Shown one piece after another: positions 39,145 through 46,447 of a stretch of 64,000 bases of DNA. Both the position numbers and the translations under genes were made by a program. Under the pieces are notes generated by a model. That model was given only the letters and a program-made list of their open reading frames with translations, was not told where the DNA came from and made no database searches. The first letter of the stretch is position 1. The number at the start of each line of letters is the position of its first letter. Source of the DNA: a virus (Duplodnaviria; Heunggongvirae; Uroviricota; Caudoviricetes); the IMG/VR virus record IMGVR_UViG_3300033463_000048, positions 39,434-103,433 of that record; one strand, 5' to 3'.

Positions 39145-40010
39145 ATATAAATATTGATGATTTAAAAGCTTGTTTGGAAAAAGATTTACAAATTGTCTCA
39201 GAAGAAGAATTTGAATGGAGAGAAAAAGAAAAAAGGAGCCACGGAGATTTTTATACTCTTGAAGAAATTTGTGGAAAAGTTCAAGAGGGTATAGTTCCTT
39301 ATCAGATTCTTTGGTATATTTTGAGATATTACGTCTTAGATAAAAAAGAAATTTCAAAAATTGTTTCTACACTTGAAATTGATCGAGTGTTATTTGATAC
39401 AGATAAAGCGTATAATTCTTTTGGAGTAACTGGAAATTGTGAAGAAGTTAGTCATAGTGAAGAGATAACTTCCTCAAAACTAGTACATAATAGTTCTTAT
39501 GTAAGAGATAGTTATGATGTCGGCGCGTCGAAATATGTAAGTAATAGTTCATATATTTCTTCAAGTAAAAAGATAACTTATTCTACTCATATTTTTGACT
39601 CAAGTAATGTGGACCATTCGGCTTATATCTCAACTTCTTCAGGGGTAACTGATTGTCAGTACATTAAATTAGGAAATAATATTTCAAATAGTGTTTTTTG
39701 TCTTGGCTGTGACGATTTTGAAAATGGTTTATTCTGTGCCTTTATTAAAAATGAAAAAGATAAGTATTTTATCTTTAACAAAGAAGTTTCAAAAGAAAAT
39801 TTTGATAGGGCGCGAGACGATTTAATTGATATGTTTGGAAAGTTCTTTTATGTAGAACGCAATAAAGATGGCACCTATATTAAAGAGCGTGATATAAATG
39901 CCTTTAAAGAATATTGTTCTTCTATTGTTGGATATGATAAGGTAATATTTGATTATCTAATGAGAGAGATATTTGGTTTGTGGAAGCCAGTGGTGATGGG
40001 AAAATTTTGA
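39141..40010 (+). CDS. hypothetical protein with Ser/Asn-rich pentapeptide-like repeats
   Basis: Start MNINIDDL at 39141; repeats SNSSYISSSKKITYSTHIFDSSNV. Confidence 0.45.
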   Translation: MNINIDDLKACLEKDLQIVSEEEFEWREKEKRSHGDFYTLEEICGKVQEGIVPYQILWYILRYYVLDKKEISKIVSTLEIDRVLFDTDKAYNSFGVTGNCEEVSHSEEITSSKLVHNSSYVRDSYDVGASKYVSNSSYISSSKKITYSTHIFDSSNVDHSAYISTSSGVTDCQYIKLGNNISNSVFCLGCDDFENGLFCAFIKNEKDKYFIFNKEVSKENFDRARDDLIDMFGKFFYVERNKDGTYIKERDINAFKEYCSSIVGYDKVIFDYLMREIFGLWKPVVMGKF

Positions 40011-41387: not shown

Positions 41388-42002
41388 ATGGCAAAATATG
41401 AAAAGTATGAGGGTATGTCCCTTCCAGATCCTGATCGCGTGCAATACTATGAGCAACTTACGAATCGTACAATGTGGATTGTAGATGAGATAGATGACTC
41501 ACTTTATTCAGTGATTGAAAAAATTATTCGATTTAATAGAGAAGATGCAGAGGCGGGATTGGATGATCCTTATGATCGTCAGCCTATTAAACTTATAATC
41601 GCATCACCTGGAGGACTTGTTGATAATGCGCGCTCACTTGTTTCTATTATGGCGATTTCTCAAACTCCAATTATTACAATTGGTATTGGACAAGTAGCGA
41701 GCGCGGCATCAATGATCTTCTTGGCAGGGCATAAGCGTATTGCTACAAAGAATACTTATTTCGTATTTCATAATGGAAGTTGTGAAAATTTGAGTGGTAC
41801 TTTTGCTGAATTACGCGCTTTCATGATGAATTATGAAAAGGAAATAGAAGAACTTTCTGAATTTTATAAAGAATATACTTCATTTGATCCAGAGTATATT
41901 GATGAAAAATTAAATGAAGGAGATTGGTATATTAGAATCGATGAAGCTATAAAGTGTGGAATCGTTGATGAAGTTACAGACGATATATCAATTTTCTTTT
42001 AA
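41388..42002 (+). CDS. clpP: ClpP-family serine protease
   Basis: IASPGGLV and GQVASAASMIFLAGHKR match ClpP catalytic Ser and His regions. Confidence 0.65.
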   Translation: MAKYEKYEGMSLPDPDRVQYYEQLTNRTMWIVDEIDDSLYSVIEKIIRFNREDAEAGLDDPYDRQPIKLIIASPGGLVDNARSLVSIMAISQTPIITIGIGQVASAASMIFLAGHKRIATKNTYFVFHNGSCENLSGTFAELRAFMMNYEKEIEELSEFYKEYTSFDPEYIDEKLNEGDWYIRIDEAIKCGIVDEVTDDISIFF

Positions 42003-42013
42003 AGGAGAATTAA

Positions 42014-43630
42014 ATGATAAATTATTTCGGCTATCTTGAAGTGGAACTTAATGATGAGGACTTTGCAACACTACAAGGAGGAAGCACACCTGAGTCTTTG
42101 GGAGAGTTAAAAGAGAACCAATATATTATTGCTAAAGACCGGTTTGGGAGAGTTGAATATTTTCAGTTTAAGAATAGTAAAGTAGAAAGAATTTTATATA
42201 CTGAATTAGGGAATGATTTTACAGGTAAAATTAAACCATTAAACGACCAACAAGTTTGCGCCTTTCATATGTTAAGAGATAAGGACGTTCCGGTGAAACT
42301 TATAACTGGTAAGTTTGGTACCGGTAAGGCGCAACCAATAGATACAGTAATCCCTACCCCAATGGGTATGAAGAGACTTGGGGATATAAAAGTTGGAGAT
42401 TATGTGTTCGCGCGTGATGGACGTAAAACGAAAGTTTTAGGTATATTTCCTCAAGGAGTTCTTACTAATTATAGAGTAGAACTTAGCGACGGGCGCGTTG
42501 TATTTTGTAATGATGAACATATTTGGACTTGCGTGGATAAAGATGGAAATTTTTTTGATACTACAATTAAAGAAATTATAAGTTCTTATATGTTATATGA
42601 GGGAGAATATTATAGAATCCCTTGGAACGAAGCAGTTAAATATGAAGCAGTTATAGACGAAAGGGATTTTTATAAGGAAGGACATTACATCTCTTGTGAA
42701 ATTCCTAAAGAATTTATGACCGCGCCGATTGATCAAAGAATGCGTCTTTTAGCTGGAATTATTGATTCTAAAGGACTTATCAAGGCACGCCGCTTATATT
42801 TAAGACTTAAGGACTTTAATCTTATTAGGGATATGTATTCTTTCTTAATGGGATTAGGAATTTACGCATATAATGATGATACTGTAATTGAAGATAACTT
42901 AACTGCGGAAATTCATTTATGTTTAAACGAAAAGCAAATAAGTGAAATTTCTCCTTATCTTTATATGTTTGAATTAGAGAGACAAATCGATCCCGAGGAG
43001 AAACCTGCACTAGAAATCACCGATATATATACTGTTGGTGAAGCAGAAATGGTATGTATTTTGGTTGATAATCCAGAGCATTTATATTTGACTAATGATT
43101 ATATTGTAACTCATAATACAATGGCAAATATTGTTGCCGCGCTGGAAGCGGTTCAAAAGGGTGAGTTTGAGAAGATTATATTTATTAGAAATAATGTACA
43201 AGTGGCTGGGACAGATCCCATTGGCGCACTTCCAGGAGACGAACATGATAAACTTCTTCCGTATTTAATGCCTTTTGCAGACCATTGCGGTGGTATAGAA
43301 GGTATTCAAAGATTAATAGAAGAAGAAAAACTTGAAGTAATTCCTCTTGCTTTTTTAAGAGGTCGTAGTATTAGAAATGCTATTCTTTATTCAATGGAAT
43401 CAGAAAATTTAACTAAAGAACATATTCAATTAATTTTAGGAAGAGTAGATAAGGGTTCTCAGTTATGGATGGATGGAGATATTAAGCAAAGAGATAAGGC
43501 TATATTTGAAAAGTCTCAAGGACTTGAAATTATGATTGAAAGACTGGCGGGGAATCCTTTATTTGGCTATGTAAATTTAGTTAAGTCAGAACGTTCACCA
43601 ATAGCCGCACTTAGCGATCTACTTGATTAA
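42014..43630 (+). CDS. phoH: PhoH-like ATPase interrupted by an intein
   Basis: The 105-aa N-extein ends GKFGTGK; the C-extein TMANIVAALEAVQKGEFEKIIFIRNN...LPGDEHDKLLPYLMPFADH is a PhoH core. Removing residues 106-368 restores the Walker A motif GTGKT. Confidence 0.8.
   Translation: MINYFGYLEVELNDEDFATLQGGSTPESLGELKENQYIIAKDRFGRVEYFQFKNSKVERILYTELGNDFTGKIKPLNDQQVCAFHMLRDKDVPVKLITGKFGTGKAQPIDTVIPTPMGMKRLGDIKVGDYVFARDGRKTKVLGIFPQGVLTNYRVELSDGRVVFCNDEHIWTCVDKDGNFFDTTIKEIISSYMLYEGEYYRIPWNEAVKYEAVIDERDFYKEGHYISCEIPKEFMTAPIDQRMRLLAGIIDSKGLIKARRLYLRLKDFNLIRDMYSFLMGLGIYAYNDDTVIEDNLTAEIHLCLNEKQISEISPYLYMFELERQIDPEEKPALEITDIYTVGEAEMVCILVDNPEHLYLTNDYIVTHNTMANIVAALEAVQKGEFEKIIFIRNNVQVAGTDPIGALPGDEHDKLLPYLMPFADHCGGIEGIQRLIEEEKLEVIPLAFLRGRSIRNAILYSMESENLTKEHIQLILGRVDKGSQLWMDGDIKQRDKAIFEKSQGLEIMIERLAGNPLFGYVNLVKSERSPIAALSDLLD
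42329..43117 (+). mobile_element. intein (263 aa) with LAGLIDADG homing-endonuclease domain; Ala1, C-terminal HN, +1 Thr
   Basis: Block A AQPIDTVI, block B NDEHIWT, LAGLIDADG-like MRLLAGIIDSKG, C-terminal YIVTHN followed by T. Confidence 0.75.
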
Positions 43631-44435
43631 GGTATTAAAAATGACAAATATTTATAAGATAACAAATATTGTTAATGGTAATATTTATATTGGAAAAACA
43701 ATTAACAATATTAATGACCGTTGGAAAGAACATATTTACTCTGCGATATCAAAAGATAAAGATGGTAATTGTCCTCTTCATTGTGCTATTAGAAAATATG
43801 GAAAAGAAAATTTTTTAATAGAATTAATTGATAGGTGCGAGGATTTTGATAGTTCAAATAAGGAAAAGTATTGGATAAAATACTATGATTCTTATAATAA
43901 TGGATATAATGCTACTTTGGGTGGGGATGGAAATCCATTATATGATAGAGAATATATCAAAAAATTATGGGACGATGGGCTGTCTAATAAAGAAATTAGA
44001 GAAATTATTGGTTGTGATAAGAAAGTAATAAGAAAGACTCTTTATTCTTATGGCATAACAAAAGAAGAGCTTTATAAAAGAAGAGGGAAGAATATAGAGA
44101 AAGATATAGATAAAGATTATTTAAAAGAGTTATGGGATGAAGAGCTAACTCTAACCCAAATTGCCGAAATTTTTAATGTTGAACAAAAAACTATTATGCG
44201 AAGATTAGAAAAAATTGGTATTGACTCTAATCAACGACATAATAGATATTATGATTCACTTTTAAAGGTTCATTGGTCTGTTATTTTAAATTTGTATAAA
44301 GAAGGAAAAACTATTTCAGAAATTCGAAAAATAACGGGCTGTGGATTTAATTCTATAGAAAAAACAATAATCAGGCATCGAGACTATTTAAAAGATAAAA
44401 ATGAAGTCAGGACTATGGCTGATTTGCTTGATTAA
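43623..44435 (+). CDS. GIY-YIG homing endonuclease
   Basis: NIYKITNIVNGNIYIGKT ... YNATLGGDG; repeated HTH-like modules. Confidence 0.8.
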   Translation: MIKVLKMTNIYKITNIVNGNIYIGKTINNINDRWKEHIYSAISKDKDGNCPLHCAIRKYGKENFLIELIDRCEDFDSSNKEKYWIKYYDSYNNGYNATLGGDGNPLYDREYIKKLWDDGLSNKEIREIIGCDKKVIRKTLYSYGITKEELYKRRGKNIEKDIDKDYLKELWDEELTLTQIAEIFNVEQKTIMRRLEKIGIDSNQRHNRYYDSLLKVHWSVILNLYKEGKTISEIRKITGCGFNSIEKTIIRHRDYLKDKNEVRTMADLLD

Positions 44436-44452: not shown

Positions 44453-46447
44453 ATGAGAGGATATACCTATTATAATCCAGGTGGTGCCGCCGGCATGAGG
44501 GATAGATATTATAGCGTAATTAATTTAAATGACCCATTTAATAAACCCAATCCTTATGGTATGGCTGCAATAAGAAATGCTAAGGATACTATAACAGAAT
44601 CTCGTGTTTCTATTGAACATTTGGCCGATTATCTTGATCAATTGGCTGCTAGGCTAGAAAATGATGAAGATAGATATATTCAAAAGAAGATAGCTCAGTT
44701 TGAAAAAGACCCTTATTTTAAAGGAGAAATTGAGGGAGAAACAAATGGCGTGGGAATGTTAAGAGCAATAAAAGATGCTCAAAAAAAGGGTAATTATTCT
44801 GATGCTTTTACTCTTTTGTTTAATGCCAGACAATCTCTTCAAACTTTAATGAATCAACGAAATGCATCTATAAGAACTTTTAAAAAAAATGCAAAAAATC
44901 TTCAAGGCATACAAAAAACAACCGAATGGCGCGAAAATGTAGACCTTGTAAAATTAATGAATGATGATAAACTTTTTGAAGAACTTGAAAATAGTTTTGA
45001 ACAAAGTTTTGATATTAATGATCCTAAACTGAGTCCAAAATTTACTAATGAATATTATATTGGTATAGCAGAAAAAATGGAAGAAGCAATCCGAAATGAG
45101 CAATTTCGAAGAGGAAATTATGCAAATTTAGATCCTGTCTTTAAAAGAAAAGGAGGAATAACAGACCAAATTAAAGACATATTTGCTCAAGCTGGACTTA
45201 TAAGAATGACAAATTCAGAAAGAGAATTATTGAAAGATATAAATCATAAAGAAAGTAACGCTGATAAACTTAGAGATTCAAAAATAAATGCTATTCTAAA
45301 AAAGGCAGTTTTGCAGAATACGGACATGAAGAAAAGAAATAAAAAACAGTCAACTCTTTTGAAAGAAATTTTGGATGTTATAAATTCTGGCGACCCTACT
45401 GAGTTATTTGGTTCTTTAAAATTACAAAAAGATATGGGAGTCATTGGAGTAGCGCTAACTGGTTCTCAAAGAGGAAAAAGAACTAACTGGTTAGGTGAAT
45501 CTTTTACAGTACAAAGAAGAGAAGACGTTGTTGCTTTTGATATTACTACTGATTATGATAAAGTTGTTGAAAAAGTAAGAGATTATTTTTATAATACTTA
45601 TGATTGGGCTACAATGTCTACTGAGCAAATGGAAAAATTAATTCAAGAAACCGCCCAAAAATGGGTAGAGGAAGGACGCGCCTTAGAAGATTTTTTTACT
45701 ATAAGAATAAATACTAAAGGTTATACTTCTAATCTTGATTTAGCTATTTTAAATAAAGGTACAAAATTAAAAGCGGCTGAAACCAATTTAATAAATCTTT
45801 CACAGAGTTTGAAGAGTGTTCAAGGTAACGTAGATAAGATAACTGGCTCTTCAGCAAGTAATTTTATAGGGAAGGCAAAAAGCATAGATAATCTTATTTT
45901 TTTGTTAGATAGCGCAATTCCTATTGGTATGTCTAGTGATATTTTATCTTCAATAGAAGATTGTATTGCTTCTATGTGTTGGATTTGGATGTGGGATGCC
46001 AATATGACAGATTTAGTTAATTTAGGAGATAATTCATCCAATTCAAATACTTTATATTTATTTCAATCTGGTGGTGCTTTGTTTAGTGGCTCTCAAATTA
46101 TTAAAGAGGCTTCAAAAGAAATAAAAGGCACGAGTATGGGTGGTATTATTAAAGTACATTTATCAATGACAAAAGATGTAAATAGAGAATATTATTTAAG
46201 TTTAAAAGAAAAGTTCCCTGTACCAGCAATTACAAAAGGAGAATCTTATACATATATAGATTCAAAAGGGCGAGAAAAAACTAGTAATAAGCATTATGGT
46301 AGCTATGAAGATCAACAAAAAGCATTGGAAAAACGTTGGGTTATGTTGAGAAATAAAGTTATAAATGATAGTACCTTACATATTGATTTTAATCAAAGGA
46401 TGATGGATAGTTTGCTTATGAAATTATCTGTTTTAAGAAATTTGTAA
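44453..46447 (+). CDS. large hypothetical protein (664 aa)
   Basis: No recognisable motif; coiled-coil-rich middle. Confidence 0.4.
   Translation: MRGYTYYNPGGAAGMRDRYYSVINLNDPFNKPNPYGMAAIRNAKDTITESRVSIEHLADYLDQLAARLENDEDRYIQKKIAQFEKDPYFKGEIEGETNGVGMLRAIKDAQKKGNYSDAFTLLFNARQSLQTLMNQRNASIRTFKKNAKNLQGIQKTTEWRENVDLVKLMNDDKLFEELENSFEQSFDINDPKLSPKFTNEYYIGIAEKMEEAIRNEQFRRGNYANLDPVFKRKGGITDQIKDIFAQAGLIRMTNSERELLKDINHKESNADKLRDSKINAILKKAVLQNTDMKKRNKKQSTLLKEILDVINSGDPTELFGSLKLQKDMGVIGVALTGSQRGKRTNWLGESFTVQRREDVVAFDITTDYDKVVEKVRDYFYNTYDWATMSTEQMEKLIQETAQKWVEEGRALEDFFTIRINTKGYTSNLDLAILNKGTKLKAAETNLINLSQSLKSVQGNVDKITGSSASNFIGKAKSIDNLIFLLDSAIPIGMSSDILSSIEDCIASMCWIWMWDANMTDLVNLGDNSSNSNTLYLFQSGGALFSGSQIIKEASKEIKGTSMGGIIKVHLSMTKDVNREYYLSLKEKFPVPAITKGESYTYIDSKGREKTSNKHYGSYEDQQKALEKRWVMLRNKVINDSTLHIDFNQRMMDSLLMKLSVLRNL

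Follow-up and report, generated by a model that had tools for sequence, protein, structure and literature searches.

Described class 3 inteins and the phage phoH locus

Class 3 inteins are defined by a non-nucleophilic residue 1 together with Trp at position B:12, Cys at F:4 and Thr at G:5, the WCT triplet (PMC3196547, PMC5050341), and in these elements the F:4 Cys attacks first, giving a class-specific branched intermediate (PMC3196547; PMC5050341; PMC6195587; PMC7664689). They have been reported to be monophyletic (PMC3196547), a phage origin has been proposed for them (PMC3196547, PMC5050341), and their insertion in P-loops is established, e.g., for DnaBi1 of Mycobacterium smegmatis (Msm) and M. 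leprae (Mle) (PMC6195587, where the roles of the catalytic residues of Msm DnaBi1 are also described). Here, we describe an insert in the phoH gene of a phage (Caudoviricetes) represented by 64,000 nucleotides (nt) of the IMG/VR record IMGVR_UViG_3300033463_000048 (positions 39,434 to 103,433), a stretch referred to below as the window. The open reading frame (ORF) at 42014..43630 is that of a PhoH-family ATPase interrupted in its ATP-binding loop by an intein, and the sequence indicates, with a probability of about 0.85, that it is a class 3 intein, seated in the Walker A P-loop and splicing by the block-F route.

The DnaB inteins Msm DnaBi1, M. leprae DnaBi and M. chimaera DnaB-1 (PDB 6BS8, 6RIX; PMC6195587, PMC7664689) share with the window intein Ala1, WCT, the B:10 His and the His-Asn end; they too interrupt a P-loop ATPase in its P-loop, and their HINT fold matches. 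They differ in the extein (DnaB, not PhoH), the +1 residue (Ser, not Thr), block B (DxxH vs NxxH) and the host (actinobacteria vs a low-GC phage); moreover, they are mini-inteins with an unstructured linker, whereas the window intein is predicted to have a folded half-endonuclease.

Among bacterial proteins, PhoH itself ranks with the leading carriers of inteins, 21 PhoH inteins having been counted in Actinobacteria and Deinococcus-Thermus (PMC4760082, Table 1), and M. fortuitum and M. xenopi PhoHi are class 3 PhoH inteins, aligned in Fig. 6a of PMC6195587. The mycobacterial PhoH inteins share the PhoH family and class 3 with WCT with the window intein, a likeness drawn from the published description, and they reside in bacterial chromosomal genes, whereas the window intein resides in a phage gene.

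Class 3 inteins of mycobacteriophages include the MP-Be DnaB prototype, MP-Catera gp206 and the TerL1-c, -d and -e and RecB inteins (PMC5050341, PMC3196547). In Walker A, the 'classic' P-loop site has the invariant Lys on one side and the nucleophilic Thr on the other, and a separate intein, TerL1-a, is inserted there (PMC5050341). Like the window intein, the mycobacteriophage class 3 inteins are phage-borne, lie in ATPases and have LAGLIDADG domains, but their exteins (terminase, helicase, RecB) and hosts are different. Those that were tested splice efficiently and several have full endonucleases, whereas in the window the endonuclease is half deleted and splicing is predicted. Thus, class 3 inteins of phage ATPases and the P-loop site between Lys and Thr (PMC5050341), as well as mycobacterial PhoH class 3 inteins (PMC6195587, PMC4760082), were known beforehand; full-text searches of the literature found no description of a phage PhoH intein.

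Structure of the interrupted phoH gene

The gene and its parts are as follows (aa, amino acids).

42014..43630, + strand: phoH precursor ORF, 538 codons plus stop, 61.6 kDa; Pfam PF02562, PHROG 2765/170 PhoH-like
42002..42007, + strand: phoH ribosome-binding site AAGGAG, 6 nt 5' of the ORF
42014..42328, + strand: N-extein, 105 aa, Walker A end ...GKFGTGK; colinear with the intein-less PhoH of the related locus L003
42329..43117, + strand: intein (probably class 3), 263 aa, 30.6 kDa; identified by HMMER matches to solved inteins, AlphaFold2 and Foldseek, and the family alignment
43118..43627, + strand: C-extein, 170 aa; its first residue, Thr+1 (ACA, 43118..43120), is also the Walker A Ser/Thr

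The original prediction, made from the sequence alone, had placed an insertion of 263 aa at 42329-43117, behind the Lys of a split Walker A motif GTGKT, with an AQPIDTVI start carrying Ala1, a VTHN end and a +1 Thr. Reading of the codons agrees with it to the base. The insert measures 789 nt (263 codons), in frame, within GTGK/T (the slash marks the insertion point). At the 5' junction GGT ACC GGT AAG (G-T-G-K, ending at 42328) is followed by GCG CAA CCA ATA (A-Q-P-I, from 42329), the insert continuing as A-Q-P-I-D-T-V-I. At the 3' junction GTA ACT CAT AAT (V-T-H-N, ending at 43117) is followed by ACA ATG, where T resumes at 43118 and the C-extein starts with T-M-A-N.

The PhoH identity of the host protein, likewise proposed earlier, was supported by a PF02562 match above threshold and by the PHROG PhoH-like assignment, and the expectation that excision restores a colinear PhoH was borne out in three comparisons. 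On the unspliced protein PF02562 matched profile positions 33-188 alone (residues 369-524), 3' of the insert, and on the protein spliced in silico it matched in one stretch from position 1 to 188 (expect value, E, 3.2e-35; 121.9 bits, cut-off 27 bits). The spliced 275-aa PhoH is 65% identical to the intein-less PhoH of L003 (E = 1e-132), the alignment being end to end and gapless at GK/S or T, and the match to the solved PhoH PDB 3B85 (1.2e-17) runs through GSGKT of 3B85. In L003 the gene order is the same as in the window, with phoH behind a ClpP gene, and the intein-less junction reads GGTAGCGGTAAA directly followed by TCAATGATGTGT. The intein-less relatives at this site (L003/P0025, P0027 and P0102) are without the segment and have GK/S or GK/T. 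The predicted masses are 61.6 kDa for the precursor, 31.0 kDa for the ligated PhoH and 30.6 kDa for the intein.

Identity of the insert

Compared with solved inteins by HMMER, the insert matched gp41-1 (1e-14 and 8e-12), Msm DnaBi1 6BS8 (1.6e-12) and MchDnaB-1 (7e-11). The AlphaFold2 model, for which a family alignment of 14 sequences served as input, had a mean predicted local distance difference test score (pLDDT) of 91.1 and a predicted template modelling score (pTM) of 0.86. The Foldseek search of this predicted structure against the PDB returned inteins and HINT proteins only. The best match was PI-SceI (3.4e-12, template modelling (TM) score 0.70-0.74 over the query, probability 1.00), and the Tli and Pho VMA inteins were also matched with probability 1.00. 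The class 3 inteins MchDnaB-1 (4.4e-8) and Msm DnaBi1 (9.3e-8) were found with a TM score of about 0.8 over the target, and further matches were to gp41-1, Prp8, DnaE, RecA, hedgehog and BIL domains; probability was 1.00 for the two DnaB inteins and for the gp41-1, Prp8, DnaE and RecA inteins as well. Based on the sequence and the modelled fold, the insert can be taken, beyond reasonable doubt, as an intein, i.e., a HINT-fold protein-splicing element. All splicing blocks A, B, F and G are present, with His64 at B:10, the terminal His262-Asn263 and Thr+1:

42329..42367, + strand: block A AQPIDTVIPTPMG, with Ala1 (GCG, 42329..42331), which is not a nucleophile
42491..42532, + strand: block B GRVVFCNDEHIWTC, with Cys60, Asn61, His64 (B:10) and Trp66 (B:12, the W of WCT)
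43046..43090, + strand: block F EMVCILVDNPEHLYL, with Cys243 (TGT, 43055..43057) at F:4, the predicted initiating nucleophile
43097..43117, + strand: block G DYIVTHN, with Thr261 (G:5), His262 and Asn263

Cys60 (42506..42508) is non-catalytic and lies four residues before the block B His. It is invariant in 14/14 aligned PhoH inteins, and its equivalent is also present in gp41-1.

Class assignment

The insert has the features of a class 3 intein: Ala1 is non-nucleophilic, WCT corresponds to W66/C243/T261, and the +1 residue is Thr. The +1 nucleophile of class 3 inteins is reportedly Ser or Thr. An absolute need for the F:4 Cys is a further mark of the class. We favour class 3 because the triplet is present and is aligned with the experimentally defined triplet of the crystallised Msm DnaBi1. 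The HMMER alignment of the two inteins pairs their residues as follows.

His64 with Msm DnaBi1 His65: B:10
Trp66 with Msm DnaBi1 Trp67: B:12
Cys243 with Msm DnaBi1 Cys118: F:4, within '...RCVEVDNPEHLYL'
Thr261 with Msm DnaBi1 Thr137: G:5
His262 with Msm DnaBi1 His138: G:6
Asn263 with Msm DnaBi1 Asn139: G:7

Moreover, the block F string C-x-VDNPEHLYL is common to both inteins.

The two halves of the splicing domain differ in their nearest solved relative. The N-terminal half scores higher with the class 1 intein gp41-1 (45-49 bits) than with class 3 DnaBi1 (33 bits), and for the C-terminal half the order is reversed (2-7 bits for gp41-1 vs 16 bits for DnaBi1). In detail, gp41-1 (PDB 6QAZ; WCT variant 6RIZ; PMC7664689) is the best PDB match of the window N-half with 44.8-49.2 bits over about 70 residues, and its C-half reaches 1.9-7.3 bits against the 16 bits of Msm DnaBi1. 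Like the window intein, gp41-1 shows a Cys that precedes the block B His by four residues, Thr at G:5 and a THN end; however, natural gp41-1 is naturally split and, as a class 1 intein, carries Cys1, Phe (B:12) and Asp (F:4) where the window intein has Ala1, Trp and Cys.

Relatives at the same site and in other proteins

A whole-precursor search found 28 other metagenomic PhoH proteins with an intein at the same GK/ site (29 including the window); one further same-site PhoH intein is truncated at its N-terminus. Ala1, an H-x-W block B, Cys at F:4 and a THN/T end occur in all 29 same-site inteins with a full start. In the 14-sequence alignment, A1, C60, H64, W66, C243, T261, H262 and N263 are invariant, Ala1 being thus constant both there and in 29/29 full-start family members including the window.

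When 1.84 billion representative proteins were scanned exhaustively with HMMER, 12,799 relatives were obtained at E <= 1e-3, and 6,394 of them also passed E <= 1e-10. Signatures were tallied in the best 146 representative relatives, which lie in many different exteins, often with several inteins per protein, and which provided 117 alignable intein copies. The full A1/W/C/T/+1T signature was found in 80 of the 117 copies, with Pro1 in 14 more, and 85 intein copies from these 146 relatives are preceded by 'GK'. The nearest 146 representatives are thus overwhelmingly Ala/Pro1 inteins with WCT, by a residue tally. PHROG matches of the intein segment were to terminase, DnaC-like loader and primase families. 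These signatures and exteins fit what has been published on class 3 inteins and on the 'classic' Lys/Thr P-loop insertion in phage ATPases (PMC5050341). The family hidden Markov model (HMM), run against the six-frame translation, detected no further inteins of this family in the window.

Among cultured phages, Vibrio phage 1.161.O._10N.261.48.C5 encodes gp150 (AUR91592, MG592529; L001 775..3222), a PhoH-family extein with an intein at the same site and a class 3 signature (GSGK/AQP..., EDHLW, KCILIDDPSHLY, VTHN/T). It differs from the window protein in that the extein has an N-terminal PIN-like domain and the intein keeps both LAGLIDADG motifs (LLGDGS, LMDTDG); its GenBank annotation is 'hedgehog/hint domain protein' only. 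The megablast search of 41388..44435 against GenBank phages gave no match, and the window phage is therefore without a close cultured relative.

Two other relatives were observed. P0121 (208 aa) is a natural class 3 mini-intein of about 140 aa without an endonuclease domain, located at GQPKTGK/AQP...THN/T in a different small P-loop ATPase, with 52% identity to the window splicing domain. The 'PhoH' ARM67638 of Lactococcus phage LW81 (L002 1435..3543) is an ATPase with a related intein at SGK/C. This intein has Cys1, block B NDEHII without Trp, Cys at F:4 (EMVCFKVDN) and VTHN/T, which makes it a relative of class 1 type in which two of the three signature residues of class 3 occur.

Selection on the intein and its host protein

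Codons were compared among four lineages (the window, L004, L006 and L008), and the proportions of synonymous (pS) and nonsynonymous (pN) differences were as follows.

Splicing domains: pS 0.54-0.81, pN 0.06-0.23
Endonuclease remnant: pS 0.61-0.75, pN 0.12-0.34
C-extein: pS 0.39-0.86, pN 0.02-0.14
Intein taken as a whole: pN 0.07-0.34

Synonymous differences are near saturation overall (pS 0.39-0.86), and the ratios of nonsynonymous to synonymous rates (dN/dS) are for this reason semi-quantitative only. No indel, frameshift or stop occurs in the 263 intein codons of any of the four lineages. The guanine plus cytosine (GC) content of the intein (0.31-0.40) is indistinguishable from that of the exteins; this comparison gave no compositional sign of recent transfer and is consistent with long residence.

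These sequence data suggest that PhoH is kept functional and that the intein, too, is under constraint. As PhoH is strongly constrained even though the insert splits its P-loop, the insert would have to be removed after translation; the constraint on the intein, together with the full retention of its catalytic residues, supports such removal too. The best surviving alternative is that the insert is an inactive relic which no longer splices, phoH being either dead or working as an interrupted protein. The endonuclease part is clearly decayed, and a non-splicing class 3 relic has been published, namely Arth_1007, which is without Cys F:4 and His B:10 (PMC3196547). Unlike Arth_1007, the window intein keeps Cys F:4, His B:10 and all other catalytic residues, and the same-site relatives all keep them across a divergence that saturates synonymous sites. 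Purifying selection on the extein (C-extein pN 0.02-0.14 vs pS 0.39-0.86) would be sensible only if a working P-loop is regenerated, and the intact 263 codons in four lineages speak against a relic as well, so that we consider it unlikely.

State of the endonuclease domain

The central part of the intein contains what is left of a homing endonuclease:

42629..43003, + strand: LAGLIDADG endonuclease remnant, about intein residues 101-225, a single half-domain
42740..42775, + strand: block E MRLLAGIIDSKG, the LAGLIDADG-type motif that survives, in which Lys takes the catalytic Asp position

The LAGLIDADG-type motif reported in the original prediction (LLAGIIDSKG) is real; it is refined here to the one half left of an endonuclease that is truncated and most probably inactive. 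It spans 42746..42775 (intein residues 140-149) and aligns with the second motif, LLQGLLDTDG, of longer relatives. These relatives (340-368 aa) have two LAGLIDADG motifs, e.g., FLGDGC and LLQGLLDTDG, and match Pfam LAGLIDADG_3/Hom_end. Against them the window intein has a deletion of about 80 residues, in which block C (the first motif) and its half-domain are gone; the deletion is common to the window and its five closest relatives, P0002-P0006, all of 263 aa. The catalytic Asp position is occupied by Lys (DSKG) in the window and P0002-P0005 and by His in P0006. An active two-motif endonuclease of this type has blocks C and E, each with a catalytic Asp or Glu at its end; in the window, block C is deleted and block E is without its catalytic Asp. 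No LAGLIDADG Pfam family was above threshold in the window protein, Hom_end being below the cut-off with E = 0.22. In the AlphaFold2 model, DSSP gave the remnant a layout of alpha-beta-beta-alpha-beta-beta-alpha, i.e., one half-domain.

Other members of the family differ in this respect. In the alignment of P0007-P0030 and P0081, both catalytic Asp residues are intact in some members, e.g., P0007-P0009, P0011 and P0020; the acidic residues have been replaced (point loss) in P0013-P0017 and P0019; and P0012 has an independent partial deletion, separate from the 263-aa group. Judged by these sequences, the PhoH intein family appears to span the whole series of endonuclease decay expected from the homing cycle, from intact through point-inactivated to half-deleted.

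The endonuclease of the window is most probably inactive, and the loss of the first half-domain and of the catalytic Asp implies that the intein no longer homes; it probably still splices. The opposite case would be a still-mobile intein whose single-motif remnant is an active homing endonuclease, e.g., an I-CreI-like homodimer cutting intein-less phoH. Single-motif LAGLIDADG enzymes act as homodimers, the remnant is modelled confidently as one half-domain, and it is under purifying selection, its pN of 0.12-0.34 being well below its pS of 0.61-0.75. However, the Lys or His at the catalytic Asp position in all six 263-aa inteins, the lack of any LAGLIDADG Pfam family at threshold and the tethering of the half-domain to the HINT domain within the intein, with a second copy absent, make continued mobility very unlikely. 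The pattern of sequence loss indicates long residence of the window intein, and not active homing.

Assessment of the class 3 assignment

A class 2 (KlbA-type) intein, in which the +1 residue would attack the N-terminal junction amide directly, without a block-F intermediate, shares Ala1 with the window intein and had been left open by the original prediction of a 'class 2/3-like' alternative mechanism, but it is extremely improbable and was rejected, since class 2 inteins have otherwise class-1-like motifs and are so far known from KlbA genes only (PMC3196547), whereas the window family has an invariant Cys F:4, Trp B:12 and Thr G:5, the +1 residue in the window is Thr rather than Cys, the extein is PhoH and the nearest solved sequence relatives are class 3 DnaB inteins and gp41-1; what remains of the earlier proposal is class 3, on account of the W66/C243/T261 triplet.

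Several points weigh against reading the insert as a splicing class 3 intein. Splicing, the block-F branched intermediate and the state of the nuclease are all deduced from sequence, and the dN/dS values are semi-quantitative, as stated above. In block B, Asn61 stands at the position of Asp62 in Msm DnaBi1. Finally, the WCT triplet and a C1A exchange, when grafted onto the class 1 intein gp41-1, led mostly to C-terminal cleavage and not to splicing (PMC7664689), which means that the triplet alone is no guarantee of activity, and the N-half of the window intein resembles gp41-1.

Genomic neighbourhood

The genes flanking phoH are:

41388..42002: ClpP-like gene, upstream of phoH
43623..44435, + strand: free-standing homing endonuclease gene with GIY-YIG and helix-turn-helix (HTH) domains, probable ATG at 43641; PF01541 1.6e-9, PHROG 7168

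The GIY-YIG gene, with three or four HTH modules, lies directly 3' of phoH, outside the intein. The window, L004 and L009 have it; L006 and L008 do not, and in these two an ORF of about 700 aa comes right after phoH. All five carry the intein. The nucleotide identity between the window and L004 is 93-95% across 43340..43939, against a background of 65-88%. This tract comprises the last approximately 290 nt of phoH and the 5' part of the GIY-YIG gene, about 220 nt separate it from the intein upstream of it, and from the sequence it looks like a recent homing and co-conversion tract. Because it stops short of the intein, the GIY-YIG gene and the intein appear to be independent selfish elements. 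Likewise, 'collaborative homing', in which the GIY-YIG enzyme would mobilise the nuclease-dead intein, was rejected as an explanation of the presence of the intein, given that in L006 and L008 the intein occurs although the GIY-YIG gene is absent, and that the tract ends about 220 nt from the intein.

Downstream of the GIY-YIG gene, a 664-aa ORF (44453..46447, + strand) had no Pfam or PHROG match; compared with its counterparts of 715-717 aa in the relatives, it has about 40-50% nucleotide identity, with many gaps. An apparent ClpP-PhoH fusion, P0025 (L003 2674..4128), was rejected since the gene call reads through three stops (ML-stop-R-stop-G-stop-MDYTGY). Read in the standard code, L003 has separate ClpP and intein-less PhoH genes, and the source contig may have been called with a reassigned stop codon.

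Proposed splicing pathway

The residue assignments rest on homology and the chemistry is carried over, by analogy, from class 3 inteins that have been studied. The 61.6-kDa precursor would be unable to form the P-loop before splicing, and Ala1 would be incapable of the usual N-terminal (thio)ester. Splicing would start with an attack of Cys243 (F:4), positioned by His64 and Trp66 of block B and Thr261 of block G, on the peptide bond between Lys(-1) and Ala1, and the product would be a branched intermediate with a block-F thioester. The N-extein would then be transferred to the hydroxyl of Thr+1, forming the standard branched intermediate, after which Asn263, assisted by His262, would cyclise and release the 30.6-kDa intein. 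An O-to-N acyl shift would finally produce the native GTGKT Walker A motif in the 31.0-kDa PhoH. Since phoH would be restored by nothing short of a precise deletion, the intein would be kept and passed on vertically.

Two further ideas go beyond this pathway. The half-LAGLIDADG domain may have been co-opted, e.g., as a nucleic-acid-binding or sensing module, and together with the family-invariant Cys60 beside the active site it may make PhoH splicing conditional on redox, metal or substrate during infection. This is suggested by the length of the remnant, fixed in four lineages whose synonymous sites are near saturation, and by purifying selection despite the lost catalytic Asp, and we regard it as doubtful. 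Cys60 might be relevant to regulation by analogy with Msm DnaBi1, where a non-conserved Cys (C48) is used for a redox trap with the F:4 Cys. As a weaker reading than co-option, the window family could be the record of a natural transition from class 1 to class 3, given an N-half close to gp41-1, a C-half close to DnaBi1 and a relative with both Cys1 and the F:4 Cys in a Lactococcus phage.

Significance of the PhoH inteins

Among class 3 inteins, the window intein stands for a new PhoH lineage in phages; it shows no new splicing mechanism, and knowledge of splicing mechanisms is unchanged by it. The annotation of the gene is corrected: the gene caller and Pfam give only 'PhoH' for the 538 aa, whereas the mature protein is predicted to have 275 aa and an intact Walker A motif. 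The 263-aa form, a compact class 3 intein with Thr+1 that is most probably endonuclease-dead by nature, is a candidate for protein engineering or conditional splicing. The catalogue of class 3 inteins thus gains a well-defined PhoH lineage from uncultured low-GC phages, with at least 29 same-site members including the window.

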